A stretch of 32,000 nucleotides of DNA from Candidatus Thorarchaeota archaeon (GCA_008080745.1 SHMX01000001.1:636890-668889), one strand, 5' to 3'; shown: positions 9,535 to 18,115, counted from the first letter of the stretch. Numbers and translations are program-made. Notes: generated by a model not told the origin, from the sequence alone.

Positions 9535-11199
9535 TTACTCGATTATTTTTGTCACTGTGCCGATTGCACGGGTGTTTCCTTCCCGAAGGACAATCTTGTC
9601 TCCAACGGATATAGCCTCGGGATATGACATGAATTCTAATTGAACGGTTGCAAAGTCACCAACAGAGAGAAACTCTGCATCATGAATCTTCTTCATGATC
9701 ACGCTTTGCTGTATTGTCTGACATTGTAATACTGGAGTATAGCCAACGGATATTCTAGTAGGATGCCTTGTGACCACGATATCTGCTTCAAAGATACGAC
9801 TTGATAGATTTTCATAATCTGGATCAATTACAACTTGTCCCCGTCGGATACGAAACTTGTCAACATCCTTTATGTCAAAGCCAAACATATCTCCAGCCTT
9901 GACGGTGCCTACTCGTTTCTTAAAGACCTCAATAGATGCCACGCGTCCCTCTTGGTATTGACCCTTCTCATCAGGACCGATAAGAACGGGTTGACCCTTT
10001 TTGAAGACGCCCGAACGAACATTTCCTGTAACAACTACATTTGTTCCTGGAATCCCTCGATATACCTTGTCTACATATGAAATAGCAGGCCCTGTTACAT
10101 CCGAATTTTTCAGGTCGGTTGGCAGAGATTGAAGTAGTTTCGTGAGCAGTGTTAGGGATTCAGCGATTGTGGCGGATGCTTCAATAATTGGTACTACCAC
10201 ACCATGGCGAATCTCTTTCATAATTGGAACAATATCATCCTCAGTTTTGACACTCACTGGGATTCGACCTATCTCCTTCAGAGTCTGACGTGTAACTGTA
10301 TTTACAAACTCAAGGTCTTCAGAATTAGCTTTATCGACTTTGGAAAGAGCTATCATGAATGGAACATCACGACCGGATATTAGGATAAGATGCTCACGAG
10401 TAATATCATCCAATCTCCGCTTACCCGTCTTCATCTCGGTTGAACGGATCAGATTTGCTTCTTCTTGTATGGGGATGAGGACCAATCCGTAATCTGCGTC
10501 TCCACCAAGTATACTCCTAATCATTGTCTTAGAAAATTCCTTGTGACCGGGAGCATCGAAGAACATGAGTATCTTAGCAGAACGATCGAGTACACGGGCC
10601 CATTCAGCTTTGCTCAATGGGTTACTGAGATGAATTGGCTCTTGGTCTCTACTAAATCCCATAAAGGCCATATGTATGTCAGCAGTCTGCCCGCGGGTTA
10701 TCTCCTGAGGATGTGTTAAGAGAAACGATCTAGCTCGCCCCTGTCCATCATCTGGAACTCCAGTCACTAGAGCACCAACAAGAGTAGATTTTCCAGAGTT
10801 AACACGACCAGCCACATTGATAGAACAGGTTTCACGAACGTCTGCGTCTGCGACACGCTTCAACAAATAGATACCAACCAAACCCTTGGTGGTTTCCACA
10901 CGGGTCTCTTCGATGATTTCTACATCGGCCGCATCACATATCGTAGAAAGAACCTTTTCAGATAGTTTCAGAGCTGACTCGCTAAGTCCAAAGATTTGCC
11001 ATTCTTCTCCATTTAGATCTTCAACACCAATCAAAAAAGTACCTTCAAAGGGTCTTTCGTGTGTCATATAGCGTATTCTGGAGATTAGCTTCTCTTTTCG
11101 TTTCTTTTTAAGGTCCGCTTTTGTCAGCTTCTGTTTGAACTCGGTAGTATCATTCTCGCCAATTCTGAGAATGCTTCGGAGTTCATCAATTGTGGCCAT
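9535..11199 (-). CDS. Archaeal GTPBP1-like translational GTPase with N-terminal AlbA/Schlafen-like domain
   Basis: ENDTTEFKQKL/GTFLIGVED N-domain; GRVNSGKST, DDGQGRARSF, EITRGQTAD, DAPGH, SKVD; EF-Tu-like domains II/III. Confidence 0.9.
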   Translation of the reverse strand: MATIDELRSILRIGENDTTEFKQKLTKADLKKKRKEKLISRIRYMTHERPFEGTFLIGVEDLNGEEWQIFGLSESALKLSEKVLSTICDAADVEIIEETRVETTKGLVGIYLLKRVADADVRETCSINVAGRVNSGKSTLVGALVTGVPDDGQGRARSFLLTHPQEITRGQTADIHMAFMGFSRDQEPIHLSNPLSKAEWARVLDRSAKILMFFDAPGHKEFSKTMIRSILGGDADYGLVLIPIQEEANLIRSTEMKTGKRRLDDITREHLILISGRDVPFMIALSKVDKANSEDLEFVNTVTRQTLKEIGRIPVSVKTEDDIVPIMKEIRHGVVVPIIEASATIAESLTLLTKLLQSLPTDLKNSDVTGPAISYVDKVYRGIPGTNVVVTGNVRSGVFKKGQPVLIGPDEKGQYQEGRVASIEVFKKRVGTVKAGDMFGFDIKDVDKFRIRRGQVVIDPDYENLSSRIFEADIVVTRHPTRISVGYTPVLQCQTIQQSVIMKKIHDAEFLSVGDFATVQLEFMSYPEAISVGDKIVLREGNTRAIGTVTKIIE

Positions 11200-11360: not shown

Positions 11361-12701
11361 ATGACTTTGCTTGACGAAGCTATAAAGCTATTACAAGAAT
11401 TGGTTCAGAACTCTTGTGTGAATCCACCTGGAAATGAGATGAAATCTATCCAGTCAATTGCAAGATACCTGGATACCCATGAGATCAGATATGAAATATT
11501 CGAATCAGCACCAAATAGAGGAAATCTATTTGCAGAGATAGAAGGTTCGGAAAAGGGTCCAAGTCTAATGCTAGGACCTGGACATGTTGATGTAGTACCT
11601 GTAGAGGATCCTTCAATATGGGCTGTACCCCCTTTTTCTGGTGAGATTAAAGATGACTATATCTGGGGGAGAGGTACAGTTGACATGCTCTTTATGGTAG
11701 TAAGTCAAGTGATAGCTTTTACCCATCTGTGGAAAGAAGGATTCAGACCGAAGGGTGATGTAAAACTCCTTATCGTTGCTGATGAAGAAGCCGCTGGTAA
11801 GTATGGTACAAAATGGATGATTGAAAACTATCCAGATCGTATCAAGAGCGACTATGTCGTTTCGGAGATGGGAGGATTCAGAATGGGAGAGGGACTATTT
11901 TTGTATCAATATGGCGAGAAGGGGGGAAGCTGGTTGAGATTGACCGCAAAAGGAACTGAACAACATGGTTCAATGCCGTATCAAGCAAATAATGCAGTTG
12001 AAAAGATAGGCAATGCAATTGTGAAACTTAGCCAATATGATGCACCTGTTGATACAACATACGTGAAACTCCTAGTTGAAGGTCTCCCGATTCAAGGGGT
12101 TCAGAAAAGATTGATATCAAGTAATTTGACCGTCAATAAAGCAATCGAAATTATGGCAAAGAGCAATCTTGAACAGGCAAAATTGATACATGCACTTACA
12201 AGAATGACAATCTCTCCAAACTTGGTGTCGGGAGGCACGAAGGTAAATGTGGTAGCTGGAGAAGCACATGTCGATATCGATGTGAGAAGCCTTCCTGGGC
12301 AAGACAGAGAGTACATCCATAATTTGCTTCAAGATGCATTAGGAGACCTAGCAGAGGACATTGACATTGGACCAGTTCCAGAAGATGCTGGTTCCGAACC
12401 ATCTTATGGAAATGCAAGCGAGATTGACACACCATTGGTTACCGTCATGGGAGATGTTCTAAAGGAACTTGTTGGAAACGATGCCACCCTTGTACCACTA
12501 CTATCTCCGGGTGTTACAGATTGCAGATTTTTCAGACTGAAGTGGAATTCACAGGCGTATGGATTTTCTATATTTGATGATAGACTTCCTATGGGTGAGG
12601 TCATGGCGATGATTCATGGCCCCAATGAGCGTATATCAATTGGTTCGTTGGATCTCACACTGAGAGGTTACAAAAGAATTGTTGAGCAGTTTTGTAGCTA
12701 A
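11361..12701 (+). CDS. M20/M25/M40 family metallo-hydrolase (ArgE/DapE-like)
   Basis: GHVDVVP, WGRGTVDM, ADEEAAG, HGSMP, HGPNE. Confidence 0.92.
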   Translation: MTLLDEAIKLLQELVQNSCVNPPGNEMKSIQSIARYLDTHEIRYEIFESAPNRGNLFAEIEGSEKGPSLMLGPGHVDVVPVEDPSIWAVPPFSGEIKDDYIWGRGTVDMLFMVVSQVIAFTHLWKEGFRPKGDVKLLIVADEEAAGKYGTKWMIENYPDRIKSDYVVSEMGGFRMGEGLFLYQYGEKGGSWLRLTAKGTEQHGSMPYQANNAVEKIGNAIVKLSQYDAPVDTTYVKLLVEGLPIQGVQKRLISSNLTVNKAIEIMAKSNLEQAKLIHALTRMTISPNLVSGGTKVNVVAGEAHVDIDVRSLPGQDREYIHNLLQDALGDLAEDIDIGPVPEDAGSEPSYGNASEIDTPLVTVMGDVLKELVGNDATLVPLLSPGVTDCRFFRLKWNSQAYGFSIFDDRLPMGEVMAMIHGPNERISIGSLDLTLRGYKRIVEQFCS

Positions 12702-13243
12702 GACTCTAATGCACGTTTAATGACCTGCTTGAACTTGAGATCAAGCTGTTCTAATCCAACACCCGTTTTGGCAGAAATCAAAGCGGATTCGGTGTTGTAT
12801 TTCTCACAAAACGAGTCCATCTCAGACTCAACTTCAGAAAAATCATCTCCAAGAAGGTCAATTTTATTACCAACCAGAATAAATCTCCAACCATCTCCAC
12901 CCGTCATATCCCACCCTCCATGATCCTGTACAAGTGGAACCCAATAATTGTATAGGCTATCAAGACTAGGAAGATAGGAAGCATCGAAAAAAAGCACACC
13001 GGCTTTTGCACCATCAACCATTTGTTTTAGGGTTTCGATAAACCGTTTTTGTCCCCCAAAATCCCATACGGATAGTGTCACATTCATCCCATTAGTCAAT
13101 TCGGTTCTAATGGTATCAAATGAAACCCCTACTGTAGTTCGCAGAAGAGCAGGATCTGGAAATGTACCCTTTGTCCAACGCTCTGAAAACGAAGTTTTTC
13201 CAACCTCGGAGTCTCCAAGTATTGCTACCTTTATTATCGTCAT
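12698..13243 (-). CDS. Ras/Rab-like small GTPase
   Basis: G1 GDSEVGKTS, G2 TTVGVSF, G3 WDFGGQ, G4 NKID, G5 SAK; no CAAX tail. Confidence 0.92.
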   Translation of the reverse strand: MTIIKVAILGDSEVGKTSFSERWTKGTFPDPALLRTTVGVSFDTIRTELTNGMNVTLSVWDFGGQKRFIETLKQMVDGAKAGVLFFDASYLPSLDSLYNYWVPLVQDHGGWDMTGGDGWRFILVGNKIDLLGDDFSEVESEMDSFCEKYNTESALISAKTGVGLEQLDLKFKQVIKRALES

Positions 13244-13255
13244 TATGATACCCCT

Positions 13256-14674
13256 CTAATTATCTGATGTTGACTCCTTGGAGGATACAAATCGAAACAA
13301 CATATCTATTGTGCGTGGGGTACCAAGAATAAGTAATATGATGATTCCGATGATTGAAAATGTCAGTATGCGAATTGGAAAGAGTTCTATGAACATGGCA
13401 ACGATAGCAAAGCCAAATGATGCAAACATAAACGTCATAAAATGTACTGCTGCCTGAGGTGCACCAGCGCGAATGAGTTTTCTTGCAACTCCAAAGAAGA
13501 CAAAAAATGCAGCAAATATCAAGAAAAATAGAAGTAGGAACAGAGTATCCCACTCAAAAACAGTAATTAGCGTATCTTCGTACTGAACCAACCGGACAAA
13601 GGGGAAACCGAGAGTGAATAATACCGCAGCATAAGCTATCAATGACTCTCTTACCAAGATCTGTGCTCTTTTTGAGAATCCCACAGAGGCTGCAGCTAAA
13701 AAGAAAGTACATGCTGAAGACACACCAAGAATCCATTCGAAATAGAGTAGCCCTTCATCAAAATTTCCCAAATAGCTCAGATAGAATGAATAATTCATTG
13801 TGTGAGCAATGGAGATAATTGCAACAAATACAAGTGTGATTGAGATGTATCTCGGGGTCTTGGCTTTGCTCTCAGAGACTTGCCCGAGGAAGAAGTCTAG
13901 AGGTATGAGAATAAATGTTGTTGCAATGGTAAGTAACAGCATCGTTTGAAAAATTAGAATATTGCCATCTACAAAGGCAGGAATCATTATTCCCAATCCA
14001 ATGGTATAGGTGAAAAACAGAATACCTAGTAAAACCATATATCTCCACGGTCGGAGGAGAGACGCCAAAATAGCCGCACCAATTACAAATGGAAGTACCT
14101 GTAGGAAGAAATACTTTGGATTAAGATACAGAATGAAAATTGGAAATCCACCCAACTCTGAAACTGCAAATAGAAAACCTGCAATGATGTATGAAAATAC
14201 AAGCAATAAACCGGATACACTGAATGGGGAAAAGGATTCTTTTACCAGATAAAGAGATAGTAGTAGACTGATAATCATTAGGATTGGGAGTCCGATTGAC
14301 AAAAAGAAAGGTGGCACTGATATTGTCACACGAAGAAATGACTCGATAGTCATCAAGCCCACTATTGTAGATATCGCGCCGAGAGATATCTTCATTTTTT
14401 TACTGTCATCAATGACCAGCTGAAGGAATGAGGCGATTAAGGTGCCAAACATCAGAGAAATAGCACTCACCGCAATAACCTGGGCATGTTGAAGAAAGGT
14501 TGCTACTAAAGCTAAGAAGAACAAGGAGAGAGCAAACAACTGAAGAGAGTTGGCTGTAGCTTGGGTAATGTTTGGTAATATTTTACGAAGCCTTACAAGA
14601 TAGATGCCAAACGAGATAAACAAAAGCAATGCTGAGAAGATGGTTGAAACGGTCAAACTTAGTACAAAATCCAT
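13256..14674 (-). CDS. Uncharacterised polytopic membrane protein (~14-15 TM)
   Basis: 472-aa ORF made almost entirely of hydrophobic helices with short loops; SD GGAGG 5' of the start. Confidence 0.8.
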   Translation of the reverse strand: MDFVLSLTVSTIFSALLLFISFGIYLVRLRKILPNITQATANSLQLFALSLFFLALVATFLQHAQVIAVSAISLMFGTLIASFLQLVIDDSKKMKISLGAISTIVGLMTIESFLRVTISVPPFFLSIGLPILMIISLLLSLYLVKESFSPFSVSGLLLVFSYIIAGFLFAVSELGGFPIFILYLNPKYFFLQVLPFVIGAAILASLLRPWRYMVLLGILFFTYTIGLGIMIPAFVDGNILIFQTMLLLTIATTFILIPLDFFLGQVSESKAKTPRYISITLVFVAIISIAHTMNYSFYLSYLGNFDEGLLYFEWILGVSSACTFFLAAASVGFSKRAQILVRESLIAYAAVLFTLGFPFVRLVQYEDTLITVFEWDTLFLLLFFLIFAAFFVFFGVARKLIRAGAPQAAVHFMTFMFASFGFAIVAMFIELFPIRILTFSIIGIIILLILGTPRTIDMLFRFVSSKESTSDN

Positions 14675-14678
14675 TATG

Positions 14679-15053
14679 CTACCTCCATAAATCTCCTATT
14701 TCTTTTCCTCTGTCATGGACGACCTTTGAAAGTTTTGAGCCTAGTTCCTTTGGAGAGGCACCGGGATTATCAAGAACTGCCTGTATTGCATCGGTAGCCG
14801 CTTCCTCAGAATCCCCCTCACATATGATAACATAGTCACCCTGTTTGCAATATCCAATCACACCATCGTCTGATTTCATGAATCTCAAAGTGGGCCCGTC
14901 ATCAGAATCGGTGGACTTGACTAAAGCAGCTGAAACCAGTTGAATAATTCCCGCCAGCATAGCAACTCGTTCTTCACTCTCATCATCATGAGGATACAAA
15001 ATTGTGGAATGGAGATCATTTGGTCGCACTCTGGCAACAAGTCGGACAGTCAT
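14679..15053 (-). CDS. Putative longin-fold (longin/roadblock-like) protein
   Basis: Predicted beta-beta-alpha-beta-beta-beta-alpha-alpha order (VRLVARV, STILYP, EERVAMLAGIIQLVSAAL, LRFMKS, VIGYCK, YVIICEG, two helices); ATGA overlap with the upstream gene. Confidence 0.6.
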   Translation of the reverse strand: MTVRLVARVRPNDLHSTILYPHDDESEERVAMLAGIIQLVSAALVKSTDSDDGPTLRFMKSDDGVIGYCKQGDYVIICEGDSEEAATDAIQAVLDNPGASPKELGSKLSKVVHDRGKEIGDLWR

Positions 15054-15331
15054 TTTCTCTTACCTCCAAAAACACCCGTAACCCAATCCATTTCATCTGA
15101 TTCTTCATCATCTGAGGGAGGGTTCAACGGTACTCGAATATCGCGGACAGCTAGTGAATCATTTCTAAAATATAATGTCACAAGTAGGCTGTGATTCGTG
15201 GCGCATCGGGCAATCAATGTTGGAGACCTTCCTTCTGTTAGAATTATTTGCTTTATTCGTTCAACCTCAGTATCAGGTAAGTCAAGTATAGCCTCTGAAG
15301 AACACTCAGGGCATGTAAATGTTAGAATCAT
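15050..15331 (-). CDS. Small Zn-binding protein (CPEC...CxxxH) with acidic C-terminal tail
   Basis: FTCPEC, ARCATNH, SDDEESDEMDW; first gene of the coupled operon. Confidence 0.75.
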   Translation of the reverse strand: MILTFTCPECSSEAILDLPDTEVERIKQIILTEGRSPTLIARCATNHSLLVTLYFRNDSLAVRDIRVPLNPPSDDEESDEMDWVTGVFGGKRK

Positions 15332-15510
15332 ATATTGTCCCCAATGCCTATTTCATAGATTATCAGACGAATTAATTCACCACACACAGGAATACATATA
15401 GTAATTATTAGTGCAGAGTTGAGGATTAGCAATCACTTCAATCACACCCATACCAACTTATTTATAATTAACAATAGTTATTAGCAAGCTGGATTGATTG
15501 GTGAACTAAC

Positions 15511-16630: not shown

Positions 16631-17206
16631 GTGAATCGGGAAAAACTACGTGATATGATGTTTAAACTGGTCTTGATAGGTGATGCAGCAGTAGGTAAGA
16701 CAAGCATAAGGCGTAGGTACATGGGCACCGGATTTGTTGCTCAACACCTTGCGACGATAGGGGTAGACTTTGCGCAAAAATATGTAAATTATGAGGAGCA
16801 GACAGTGCGTTTGGTCATTTGGGACCTTGCAGGGCAAGAGGCATATGAGAGAATTAGAAGTTATTATTACCAGGGCTGCAGTGCGGTTGTCCTGGTATAT
16901 TCAGTTGTTGATAGAAGATCCTTCGATAATGCCAGTAAATGGTTGGTTGAGGCACACAAATACATTGGTGGCCTTCCACCATCATTAGTACTAGGAAACA
17001 AGATAGACCTCCGAGAACAACGGAGGAAACATGAGATAGTCACGAGGGAAGAAGGACAAGAATTTGCCCAAATATTCAGTGAAAGAATGGAAGTTCCAGT
17101 TTTATTCAGGGAAACCTCTGCATTAACAGGAGAGAATATCAACACGGCATTTCAAGAACTTACCGAATTGATGATTGAAATTTATAGAAAGAGAAAACAC
17201 GAATGA
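16631..17206 (+). CDS. Rab-like small GTPase
   Basis: GDAAVGKTS, TIGVDF, IWDLAGQE, YYQG, GNKIDL, ETSAL; SD AGGTGA before the GTG start. Confidence 0.93.
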   Translation: MNREKLRDMMFKLVLIGDAAVGKTSIRRRYMGTGFVAQHLATIGVDFAQKYVNYEEQTVRLVIWDLAGQEAYERIRSYYYQGCSAVVLVYSVVDRRSFDNASKWLVEAHKYIGGLPPSLVLGNKIDLREQRRKHEIVTREEGQEFAQIFSERMEVPVLFRETSALTGENINTAFQELTELMIEIYRKRKHE

Positions 17207-17266: not shown

Positions 17267-18115
17267 TTATTTCATGATATCATCTATTGTGACTTTTTCC
17301 TCAGAGGATAACGATCTCATTTTGAATACGATGATTACCATTATTGCAAACCCGATATTGACAAGAAGGGTGTACACTGCAGGAATGGTAAATCCAGCAT
17401 CATATATCAGGAAGCCAACAGTATTAGTTATTGCATGATATAGTGTCACGGTAATCAGGTTCCCGTTAGTTGAATTGTATATCCAAGTGTATAGGATAGT
17501 TACAATAATTGTATGTAGGGAGAAAATGAGAAAATTGCCGTAGATCTCAATTTGCGCACTTGAGGGAATCACGAAATATTGCCAATGCCAAAGGGACCAA
17601 ACAATTCCCAGAGCCAGACTCGCAACCAAGGCATTTTGCGTCTTCTGTAAAGCAGGGAGTGCAAAGCCTCTCCAACCTATTTCTTCCCAGATATTCATCA
17701 AAAAATTGCTCAAAAGAATAGGGATGAATACTGCAAAGTTTGCATTTAGAAATTCAAAAGTTGAACCCATTAGAACCATCATACCGATGGCAGTATAAAA
17801 GGTCACAAAGGGAAGAATGATTGCCACCATAATCATTGGTCTATTAGATATCGACCGAGTGAGTCCAGAGAAGACATTTTTTGCGCCATCACTACCAAAT
17901 GCCAAAGCAGCCGTTATGACCGCGGCTATCGTAGGTGAACCGCCCCCAAGCAGGACAAACGGTGTAACCAATGTGGTGGGGAATAATCCATATTCTGATA
18001 GAACCAGTGGTAGGTATCCAATAAAACCGATTATCAGAGCCAGCAAAGAAAATACAAAGAAGGCATACTTTAGAATGAAACTATGATTAGATGATGTCGA
18101 TTCTGTATCATTCAT
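17267..18115 (-). CDS. CPBP (Abi/Rce1-like) intramembrane glutamic endopeptidase
   Basis: EEIGWRG, WSLWH, HAITN motifs; multi-TM. Confidence 0.92.
   Translation of the reverse strand: MNDTESTSSNHSFILKYAFFVFSLLALIIGFIGYLPLVLSEYGLFPTTLVTPFVLLGGGSPTIAAVITAALAFGSDGAKNVFSGLTRSISNRPMIMVAIILPFVTFYTAIGMMVLMGSTFEFLNANFAVFIPILLSNFLMNIWEEIGWRGFALPALQKTQNALVASLALGIVWSLWHWQYFVIPSSAQIEIYGNFLIFSLHTIIVTILYTWIYNSTNGNLITVTLYHAITNTVGFLIYDAGFTIPAVYTLLVNIGFAIMVIIVFKMRSLSSEEKVTIDDIMK

Follow-up and report, generated by a model that had tools for sequence, protein, structure and literature searches.

Four neighbouring genes in the genome of a Thorarchaeota archaeon form a tightly coupled operon that keeps its composition, gene order and spacing in related genomes. 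They encode a predicted zinc-ribbon protein of 93 residues (Zn93), a 124-residue protein modelled as a stand-alone longin (R124), a polytopic membrane protein of 472 residues (TM472) and a Rab-like GTPase of 181 residues (GTP181). We give a somewhat better than even chance to the reading that these proteins form a membrane G-protein module, conservon-like and specific to the lineage of the Thorarchaeia, which would have been inherited and duplicated as one unit. A literature search found no description of this four-gene cassette.

Small GTPases number in the dozens in Asgard genomes (the present one has 32 Ras-family matches), longin and roadblock proteins are also many, and their pairing is largely unassigned. 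GTPase genes are generally not found in operons with their regulators, as Tran et al. described for MK-D1, and pairs are therefore hard to predict (PMC10933270). The cassette offers a rare cognate set of a GTPase, a longin, an accessory and a membrane partner, open to direct expression and assay. It exposes a Thorarchaeota longin family missed by sequence annotation and provides a prokaryotic genetic link between a G protein and a membrane protein modelled as GPCR-like 7TM. The system thus bears on the origin of 7TM/G-protein signalling and on how GTPases without a lipid anchor were recruited to membranes before eukaryotic prenylation. That it is confined to one order speaks for caution about any ancestry to eukaryotic systems.

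All four genes lie on the minus strand of the window, by which we mean the whole 32,000-nucleotide stretch of DNA that was analysed. The Zn93 gene (15331..15050) and the R124 gene (15053..14679) meet in an ATGA, where the R124 start codon (15053-15051) overlaps the Zn93 TGA (15052-15050), and R124 is predicted from this overlap to be translationally coupled to Zn93. The TM472 gene (14674..13256) follows after a gap of 4 nt counted from the TAG of R124 (14678-14675), and the GTP181 gene (13243..12698) after 12 nt counted from the TAG of TM472 (13255-13244). Purine-rich, GGAGG-like sites are located 7–14 nt 5' of all four ATGs: GGGGA (15342-15338) for Zn93, GGAGGT (15067-15062) for R124, GGAGG (14686-14682) for TM472 and GAGGGGT (13256-13250) for GTP181, all read on the minus strand. 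Open reading frames and sequence confirm the overlap, gaps and Shine-Dalgarno sites that a first-pass annotation had reported for these genes. None of the internal gaps contains a promoter-sized spacer. Upstream, an AT-rich region of 179 bp (15332..15510, not assigned to a strand) is shared with a divergent aldo/keto-reductase-like gene and is presumed to be the putative promoter region of the operon. An Rfam scan of the window returned no RNA family match. Two marine-sediment DNA runs contain the stretch and may be its source; no RNA run is listed.

How widely is this arrangement kept? We find the order zinc ribbon, longin, membrane protein (in one or two copies) and GTPase in 23 cassettes, which come from 14 or more genera of a single family and have intergenic junctions between -11 and +18 nt. 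In a synteny search with the longin as the only query, hits came from 17 of 24 genomes in this family. The TM472 family is present in 39 of 85 genomes of the family and in the one genome of its sister family, and in 0 of 313 other Asgard genomes sampled. This restriction to one archaeal order counts against a core or ancestral role. All named cassette records are Thorarchaeota MAGs, some of them labelled Promethearchaeota or archaeon, which supports the Asgard origin implied by the first-pass annotation. Flanking genes, including a second Rab-like GTPase, were considered as further members and rejected, as their conservation stops at a genome of the same genus; since the flanks are kept only within the genus, we take the set of four genes as the unit.

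Two metagenomic versions, very distant in sequence, retain the order of a zinc protein, a 129-residue protein, a TM protein and a Ras-type GTPase. Their zinc proteins are 32% and their GTPases 41% identical to those of the cassette, the membrane protein is recovered by profile (E 2.6e-16), and the longin is beyond BLAST detection, found by profile only at 49% probability. Within one genome, whole-cassette paralogues are as diverged as cassettes of different genera, and the four proteins show correlated pairwise identities (longin-TM r=0.81, longin-GTPase r=0.64), to which shared ancestry contributes. In many cassettes one GTPase is accompanied by two paralogous membrane proteins, and one locus, L025, contains adjacent duplicated cassettes, one of them without the GTPase. 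Fused forms of the longin or of Zn93 were sought among longer proteins and none was found, which is weak evidence. The first-pass annotation had named conservation of the gene order as a point to check; with the same order in 23 related cassettes and in the two very distant versions, it is strongly kept, far beyond chance.

The second protein, R124, has no significant sequence or profile match in Pfam, NCBIfam or PDB. The best roadblock or longin hit of its family in Pfam is Robl_LC7 (E 0.077, in 2 of 19 members), there is no match to a longin model, and the relatives listed, 120 of 174, are all hypothetical proteins or unnamed. Its AF2 model, built from 19 sequences, is of moderate confidence (pLDDT 79, pTM 0.72) and places strands at residues 3-10 and 15-20, a helix at 27-46, strands at 56-61, 64-71 and 74-80, and helices at 83-94 and 101-122. 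This order, bb-a-bbb-aa with no N-terminal helix, is that of longins. VIA-align ranks the DENND1A longin best (Z 10.4 over 112 residues, 3.4 A), and further longins are those of VAMP7 (Z 9.9), zeta-COP (9.3), sedlin (9.0), Nyv1 (8.8) and Mon1-Ccz1 (8.5), and a Lokiarchaeal longin (8yqg, 7.7); SRX domains are also matched (7.0-7.9). Solved longins match over the full length, and most roadblock alignments end at about residues 82-100. The top Foldseek matches in PDB and Swiss-Prot are the longins of AP sigma, Sec22b and VAMP7. Feature neighbours in ESM are Asgard clusters automatically named 'first longin domain of FUZ/MON1/HPS1' (0.88-0.89); we treat this as no more than a lead. An earlier longin call, made from the predicted order of secondary structures, is thereby borne out, and the models confirm R124 as a stand-alone longin at the level of the fold.

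What might such a longin do? Longin/roadblock proteins serve as platforms for small GTPases (PMC10933270), and longins are more typically GEFs (PMC12290439, PMC10933270). In the GAP longins FLCN, NPRL2, SMCR8 and C9orf72, a GP motif ends the loop before strand 2, beside the arginine finger (PMC12290439). This motif is absent from all 19 members of the R124 family; the loop reads PNDL in R124 and xLDxM in the family consensus. For lack of the GP motif, a GEF-type or platform longin appears more likely than a GAP. What counts against the reading is that other longins are GAPs or effectors (SRX with SR-beta), or have functions that involve no GTPase.

Zn93 combines a predicted zinc beta-ribbon core of the Brz type with a charged linker that varies among members and, at its very C-terminus, a conserved DW...FGG tail. 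In an alignment of 14 orthologues C7, C10, C43 and H47 are invariant, as is a GRSPT motif, and the four residues are the predicted metal ligands of what appears to be a zinc-ribbon protein. Thirteen of the 14 members match Zn_ribbon_Brz (PF23454) at E<=0.01, the best at 6.3e-7; the protein of the window itself scores 18 bits, under the cut-off of 27.9. Its ESM Atlas model is weak (pLDDT 0.60), and the nearest shapes are CPXCG zinc ribbons with TM<0.5. Pfam shows no similarity to DUF742/CvnC.

GTP181 belongs to the Ras superfamily: it carries G1 GDSEVGKT, a switch-I TTVG, G3 WDFGGQ, G4 NKID and G5 SAK, and Pfam identifies Ras at 1.4e-20 (74 bits, cut-off 21.6) and Roc at 2e-18. The catalytic Gln is retained. 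Compared with the neighbouring GTPase, an insertion of about eight residues with a conserved GDG.RF motif precedes G4. The best sequence matches in PDB are Rabs, namely Rab28 (4e-15), Rab12 and Rab7/Ypt7, with E-values of 1e-15 to 1e-11. Since the matches reach only this range and the C-terminal tail lacks a Cys in the window protein and in 12 aligned orthologues, we use the term Rab-like and do not call it a Rab. GTP181, the 22nd of the 32 Ras-family matches in its genome, is a Rab-like switch with all its parts and no motif for a lipid anchor, and the missing CAAX tail pointed out previously extends to a C-terminus free of Cys in all 13 cassette GTPases.

The membrane protein belongs to an orphan family with 65 representatives among 1.84 billion proteins. 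The AF2 model of TM472 (pLDDT 89.1, pTM 0.87) contains the 15 transmembrane helices already counted in the first-pass annotation: a first 7TM bundle (residues 1-212), a linker helix TM8 (210-236) and a second 7TM bundle (about 237-452), followed by a C-terminal amphipathic helix (453-469). The predicted topology is N-out and C-in, with 18 interfacial K+R inside versus 4 outside. Columns conserved to at least 70% amount to 23 of 116 in cytoplasmic segments, 11 of 125 in outer ones and 18 of 231 in the TM core, which shows that conserved motifs are enriched on the cytoplasmic side.

Both modelled halves of TM472 resemble GPCRs in fold. The N-half aligns to a designed GPCR-like fold (Z 15.3), GABA-B (14.6), ADGRL3 (14.2) and the 7TM domain of LYCHOS (12.8), and the C-half to ADGRV1 (12.3) and a TAS2R (11.4), scores that are near the Z of up to about 13-14 common among helical bundles. 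In three structure searches nearly all top matches are 7TM receptor domains; one of the searches also returned two microbial rhodopsins and one transporter. In shape, the neighbours in the ESM Atlas are 7TM sensor modules of bacteria whose fused outputs are GGDEF domains or histidine kinases. At the sequence level there is no homology to any 7TM family and no GPCR motif, no Pfam family, GPCR or prokaryotic 7TMR included, matches two or more of the 24 members at E<=0.1, and the seventh helices have no conserved Lys. LYCHOS, the best PDB match in Foldseek (E-value 0.01, TM 0.29), was rejected as a match to the whole protein, as on re-alignment just its GPCR-like domain could be fitted to the N-half. 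A tandem internal duplication is likewise unsupported by sequence (hhalign of N-half against C-half profile, 4% probability), the two bundles being visible in models only. DUF2339, the automatic name of the sole AlphaFold-DB cluster relative, was not reproduced by Pfam in 24 members. TM472 is thus modelled as two GPCR-like 7TM bundles, at fold level only and near the helical-bundle background.

Possible interfaces among the four proteins, a GEF or GAP activity of the longin, an adaptor role for Zn93 and a TM472 that would take the place of a lipid anchor are inferred from the operon structure and by analogy. In the module that we favour, the double-7TM protein would serve as membrane sensor or scaffold and would, with its conserved cytoplasmic loops (SPSPF, RPWR, PLDFF..ET.ARTP.YIS and R.G...AA.RF), keep the soluble partners at the membrane. 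There the nucleotide state of the GTPase would be set on a platform formed by the longin, probably as a dimer or jointly with Zn93, and Zn93 would be a co-regulator or adaptor that docks by its C-terminal DW...FGG tail. A bolder version, for which we see a rather low chance, makes TM472 a true receptor: conserved loops on its cytoplasmic side, and the platform of longin and Zn93, would couple it directly to the nucleotide state of a dedicated Rab-like GTPase. If this is true, Asgard archaea would possess 7TM-receptor/G-protein signalling of an archaeal kind, which could have arisen independently of eukaryotic GPCR-G-alpha and LYCHOS/Rag-type signalling or be related to them.

The same four proteins could also be wired as in conservons or with MglB, the longin being a GAP or an effector of the GTP state, as SRX is for SR-beta, and Zn93 the exchange factor (cf. 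CvnC/MfpC). We hold this to be unlikely. In actinobacterial G-protein systems the roadblock protein is likely the GAP and the small accessory protein the GEF (PMC13621833, PMC11343762), SRX domains are among the structural matches of R124, and Arg29 at the start of helix 1 is invariant in its family. Against these points stand the missing GAP-specific GP motif, the GEF activity more typical of longins (PMC12290439, PMC10933270) and the dissimilarity of Zn93 to DUF742/CvnC; the catalytic Gln of GTP181 neither supports nor excludes a GAP.

Another view, quite improbable in our judgement, sees TM472 as the functional core, a transporter or a lipid-handling or membrane-shaping protein gated or assembled by the GTPase, longin and zinc protein, with a GPCR resemblance due to generic packing of seven helices. 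Eukaryotic transporters that act on small GTPases exist, such as SLC38A9 with Rag. The Z scores near background and the lack of a GPCR sequence motif would fit, as would the frequent pairs of paralogous membrane proteins per GTPase, expected of a hetero-oligomeric membrane machine. However, the top structural matches are nearly all receptor domains and not transporter folds, the ESM Atlas neighbours are bacterial sensors, and conservation is concentrated in cytoplasmic loops and not in the helix core. It is very improbable, finally, that the genes are only co-located and co-transcribed and their products share no complex or pathway: order, composition and near-zero spacing outlast the detectability of the longin by BLAST, cassettes are duplicated as a whole, and the flanks are not conserved. 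A complex prediction for TM472 with GTP181 (ipSAE 0.00, without controls) gives no verdict on binding in either direction, and none on this explanation.

How does the favoured module compare with known systems? With MglA/MglB it shares a prokaryotic small GTPase gene that adjoins the gene of a roadblock-superfamily regulator, but there the regulator, MglB, is a GAP of the roadblock fold, the Ras-type catalytic Gln is missing from MglA, and the operon has no dedicated membrane protein. At the lysosome, the system of LYCHOS (GPR155), GATOR1 and Rag, with Ragulator, combines a GPCR-like 7TM multi-helix protein with longin/roadblock regulators of GTPases. It provides an analogy only: just the GPCR-like domain of LYCHOS aligns, its transporter-like domain has no equivalent here, GTP181 is not of the Rag type, and R124 is without the GAP-type GP motif. 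According to a 2026 preprint, certain Asgard proteins group with eukaryotic GPCRs by structure, one of the clusters being of class C. The longin-platform Rab GEFs Mon1-Ccz1, DENN, TRAPP, BLOC-3 and CPLANE offer the longin fold, matched over its full length at Z 7-10.4, and a Rab-like partner; unlike these eukaryotic platforms, R124 is a single protein of 124 residues with no DENN or added longin domains and no detectable sequence homology.

Among Asgard archaea, a roadblock/longin protein is genetically linked to a small GTPase in the operon of LAMTOR1-like, Rab-like and DENN genes (Liu et al., 10.1101/2020.10.19.343400), and regulator and GTPase are joined in longin/roadblock-GTPase fusions (Tran et al., PMC10933270). 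The present cassette differs in having no DENN or LAMTOR1-like gene, in its integral protein modelled as double-7TM and its predicted zinc ribbon, and in its confinement to Thorarchaeia; the longin homologues given by Tran et al. are those of Loki and Odin, and not of Thor (PMC10933270). The conservons (CvnA-D; MfpB-D) and related G-protein systems (PMC13621833, PMC13343842, PMC4316618) provide the precedent of a four-gene operon in which a sensor in the membrane and a Ras-like GTPase are encoded together with a regulator of the roadblock/longin superfamily and a small accessory protein. They too are multiplied in genomes, with adjacent duplicates of which one has lost its GTPase (PMC4316618), as at L025 here. 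In the present cassette, in contrast, the putative sensor is modelled as a double 7TM without a histidine-kinase domain, the regulator is a longin and not a roadblock, the accessory protein a predicted zinc ribbon and not DUF742, and the GTPase Rab-like with DxxGQ and not of the MglA type, in a different gene order and an Asgard host. Pfam found no histidine-kinase, DUF742 or roadblock match in the cassette proteins. The comparison points to a cassette that is conservon-like in its presumed working, and not a member of the conservons.

Four minus-strand open reading frames follow one another closely in the window and encode a 93-residue zinc-ribbon protein (Zn93, 15331..15050), a 124-residue protein (R124, 15053..14679), a 472-residue membrane protein (TM472, 14674..13256) and a 181-residue Rab-like GTPase (13243..12698). 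The ORF listing places them exactly where the first-pass annotation had put them, and the sequence agrees with the junctions described there: Zn93 and R124 share an ATGA start/stop overlap at 15053-15050, gaps of 4 nt and 12 nt separate R124 from TM472 and TM472 from the GTPase, and a GGAGG-like site is found 7-14 nt upstream of every ATG in the operon. The operon has clean boundaries, since its neighbour on the start side, an aldo/keto-reductase-like ORF from 15511, is divergent and the gene past the GTPase is convergent. A search for RNA data covering this stretch found none. Elsewhere in the window, a 554-residue EF-Tu-family GTPase (9535-11199, minus strand; GTP_EFTU, D2, D3) begins with some 120 additional N-terminal residues, which give a weak AlbA_2/Schlafen-like match (E 0.022), and a 282-residue polytopic membrane protein (17267-18115, minus strand) contains an EEIGWRG-type motif, which we take to be reminiscent of CPBP/Abi intramembrane proteases.

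How far does this arrangement extend beyond a single genome? In a search of 41 related genomes, R124 was present in 17 of the 24 others from the same family and in none of the 16 from other families. A scan of species-representative genomes gave 38 loci, 37 of them in archaeal metagenome-assembled genomes labelled Thorarchaeota, Promethearchaeota or archaeon; the exception is a weak, partial match (E 3e-4) in an actinobacterial one. Wider stretches were fetched around 20 matches and searched by tblastn with all four window proteins. The gene order is conserved: every sufficiently long locus contains Zn93, R124, one or two TM472 paralogues and the GTPase, with junction lengths of -11 to +18 nt across all cassettes. 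A TM472 profile finds the membrane protein in 39 of 85 genomes of the family, in the single genome of a sister family of the same order, and in none of 313 genomes from about 30 other Asgard families. The genes flanking the operon in the window were found again only in a same-genus genome, so it is the four genes that form the conserved unit: a translationally coupled set of a zinc ribbon, a longin fold, a double 7TM-like protein and a Rab-like switch.

Pairwise identities among 17 complete cassettes are correlated (r=0.81 for R124 and TM472, 0.64 for R124 and the GTPase, 0.57 for TM472 and the GTPase), which is no evidence of binding because shared ancestry alone can yield such values. Paralogous cassettes within one genome diverge as much as cassettes of different genera. 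These comparisons of sequence fit a cassette that was inherited and duplicated as a unit. Tandem duplications of the whole cassette occur at four loci (L014, L023, L029, L025), and in the pair at L025:4898-9574 (G001:C121) the first cassette consists of the zinc, longin and membrane protein genes without a GTPase of its own. Many cassettes combine two tandem membrane-protein paralogues with one GTPase, which suggests hetero-oligomeric membrane partners; diverged pairs, with about 25-33% identity to the window protein, were seen at L017, L018, L020-L022, L024, L026, L028 and L029.

The most remote versions come from two metagenome contigs, whose TM472 relatives (profile E 2.6e-16 and 2.8e-9) both lie inside the same cassette, with the gene order of the window (L070:4311-6906 and L072:2425-5841). 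Genes for proteins of 96 and 98 residues and of 129 and 128 residues are followed by one or two membrane proteins; L070 also has a Ras-family gene, and the L072 contig ends after its second membrane-protein gene. The zinc protein of L070 is 32% identical to Zn93, including the C-terminal DW..FG, and its GTPase 41% identical. Its 129-residue protein gives no BLAST match to R124; against the R124 profile, 102 columns can be aligned (probability 49%), and its C-terminus is again SLWG. Both contigs may stem from the sister family that is weakly matched in genome G025.

Pfam, NCBIfam and PDB profile searches returned nothing significant for R124 and do not place it in the longin or roadblock families by sequence. 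Databases hold 174 relatives, and the 120 listed are 'hypothetical protein' or unnamed, without a Pfam domain. An AlphaFold2 model built on a 19-sequence alignment reached moderate confidence (pLDDT 79, pTM 0.72) and consists of two strands, a helix, three further strands and a final pair of helices, lacking a helix at the N-terminus, an order that distinguishes longin from roadblock domains (PMC10933270). In an exhaustive structural comparison with 48,161 PDB representatives, longin domains came out on top over the whole length: DENND1A (Z 10.4), VAMP7 (9.9), zeta-COP (9.3), CPLANE (9.1), sedlin (9.0), Mon1-Ccz1 (8.5), FLCN/FNIP (8.1), SRX (7.9) and a Lokiarchaeal longin (7.7). Most roadblock proteins align to the core alone, from residue 1 to about 82-100. 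The longin match is seen again with Foldseek, both in the PDB and among Swiss-Prot models, and language-model neighbours, useful as a lead only, are Asgard clusters auto-named for the first longin domain of FUZ/MON1/HPS1 (0.88-0.89). The longin call, originally made from predicted secondary-structure order, is thus borne out at the level of the fold.

Which kind of longin might this be? The GAP-type longins FLCN, NPRL2, SMCR8 and C9orf72 are marked by a GP motif, and a GEF or platform role is called more typical for longins (PMC12290439). None of the 19 aligned R124 family members has this motif in the loop that precedes strand 2, so that our reading leans towards a GEF or platform longin.

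TM472 belongs to a tiny family and matches no Pfam family. Searching 1.84 billion representatives with its profile yields 65 proteins, and about 40 membrane-protein representatives of full length are on record. With 24 sequences as input, AlphaFold2 gave a confident model (pLDDT 89, pTM 0.87), which shows 15 membrane helices followed by a C-terminal amphipathic helix. Structural matches of residues 1-212 are almost all 7TM receptor domains, namely a designed GPCR-like fold (Z 15.3), GABA-B (14.6), ADGRL3 (14.2) and mGlu5 (13.6), over about 200 residues at 3.5-4.4 Å, and the C-terminal half (residues about 234-470) again finds 7TM receptor domains (ADGRV1, Z 12.3; TAS2R, 11.4); these scores are to be read knowing that Z values of about 13-14 are common among helical bundles. 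Neighbours by shape in the ESM Atlas are bacterial 7TM sensor modules joined to GGDEF or histidine-kinase outputs. The modelled architecture is 7TM, linker helix, 7TM. With the linker helix between them, both predicted bundles share an N-out, C-in orientation, which is supported by the charge distribution (K+R 18 inside, 4 outside). Because the Z scores lie near the bundle background, the best Foldseek E-value is only 0.01 and the two halves have no detectable sequence similarity to each other, we describe TM472 as having a predicted GPCR/7TM-receptor-like fold and claim no homology. Conservation favours the cytoplasmic side, with 23/116 conserved columns there, 11/125 on the outside and 18/231 within the core. 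These columns make up recognisable motifs in the inner loops (SPSPF, RPWR, PLDFF..ARTP.YIS and R.G...AA.RF), an enrichment to be expected should the soluble operon partners dock there.

In the alignment of Zn93, C7, C10, C43 and H47 are invariant and a GRSPT motif is present; a charged, variable linker connects this core to a conserved DW...FGG at the C-terminus. The Brz zinc beta-ribbon model is matched by 13 of the 14 members of the family (best E 6.3e-7), the window protein itself falling below the cut-off. Brz, the Pfam model nearest to the Zn93 ribbon, regulates bacteriorhodopsin, which is a 7TM protein too; this may be a coincidence. R124 also ends in a conserved Trp motif, ..LW[RG], and the Trp-containing C-termini of both proteins are candidate docking or membrane-interface tails.

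The GTPase passes the cut-off for Pfam Ras (74 bits), has all G motifs, DxxGQ among them, and a conserved insertion before G4; its closest solved relatives by sequence are Rabs. It is among the more divergent of the 32 Ras-family genes in its genome. Residues 10-17 form the P-loop GD[ST]E[VC]GKT of the cassette GTPases, with a conserved Glu at the position of Ras Gly13, where the neighbouring Rab-like gene has Ala. The proposed absence of a lipid-anchor tail holds throughout the alignment, no orthologue having a C-terminal Cys. On the opposite strand, at a distance of 1.3 kb from the operon, there is a second, far more canonical Rab-like GTPase (16631-17206, plus strand; Pfam Ras 1.2e-44), in a position kept in the same-genus genome only.

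We infer that the four products form a membrane-associated G-protein module, in which TM472 would act as sensor or scaffold, the nucleotide state of the GTPase would be set by the longin R124, either by itself or jointly with Zn93, and Zn93 would serve as adaptor or co-regulator. Of the membrane-anchored switch envisaged in the first-pass annotation, the longin fold, the gene order and the GTPase without lipid anchor stand.

The cassette is a real, conserved, previously unannotated and Thorarchaeia-specific module. Asgard archaea are known to have an operon of LAMTOR1-like, Rab-like and DENN genes as well as fusions of GTPases with longin or roadblock domains (10.1101/2020.10.19.343400; PMC10933270); the literature searched contains no description of a cassette in which a zinc ribbon and a polytopic 7TM x2 protein occur together, and a database search among longer proteins found no fused forms of R124 or the zinc protein. 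Its GPCR-like double-7TM partner is unusual, which makes the cassette a good starting point for experiments. Among described systems, the actinobacterial conservon comes closest in its logic; there a Ras-like GTPase and a small accessory protein accompany a sensor kinase and a roadblock protein (PMC4316618, PMC13621833, PMC13343842, PMC11343762). Conservons, too, are multiplied in genomes, at times in neighbouring copies of which one is without its GTPase, and the GTPase-less copy at L025 resembles duplicated conservons in which one of the mglA-type genes has disappeared (PMC4316618). By sequence, the components other than the GTPase all fall outside the conservon families, and the cassette is therefore said to work like a conservon, not to be one; its best class is that of prokaryotic systems combining a membrane sensor, a roadblock or longin protein and a small GTPase.
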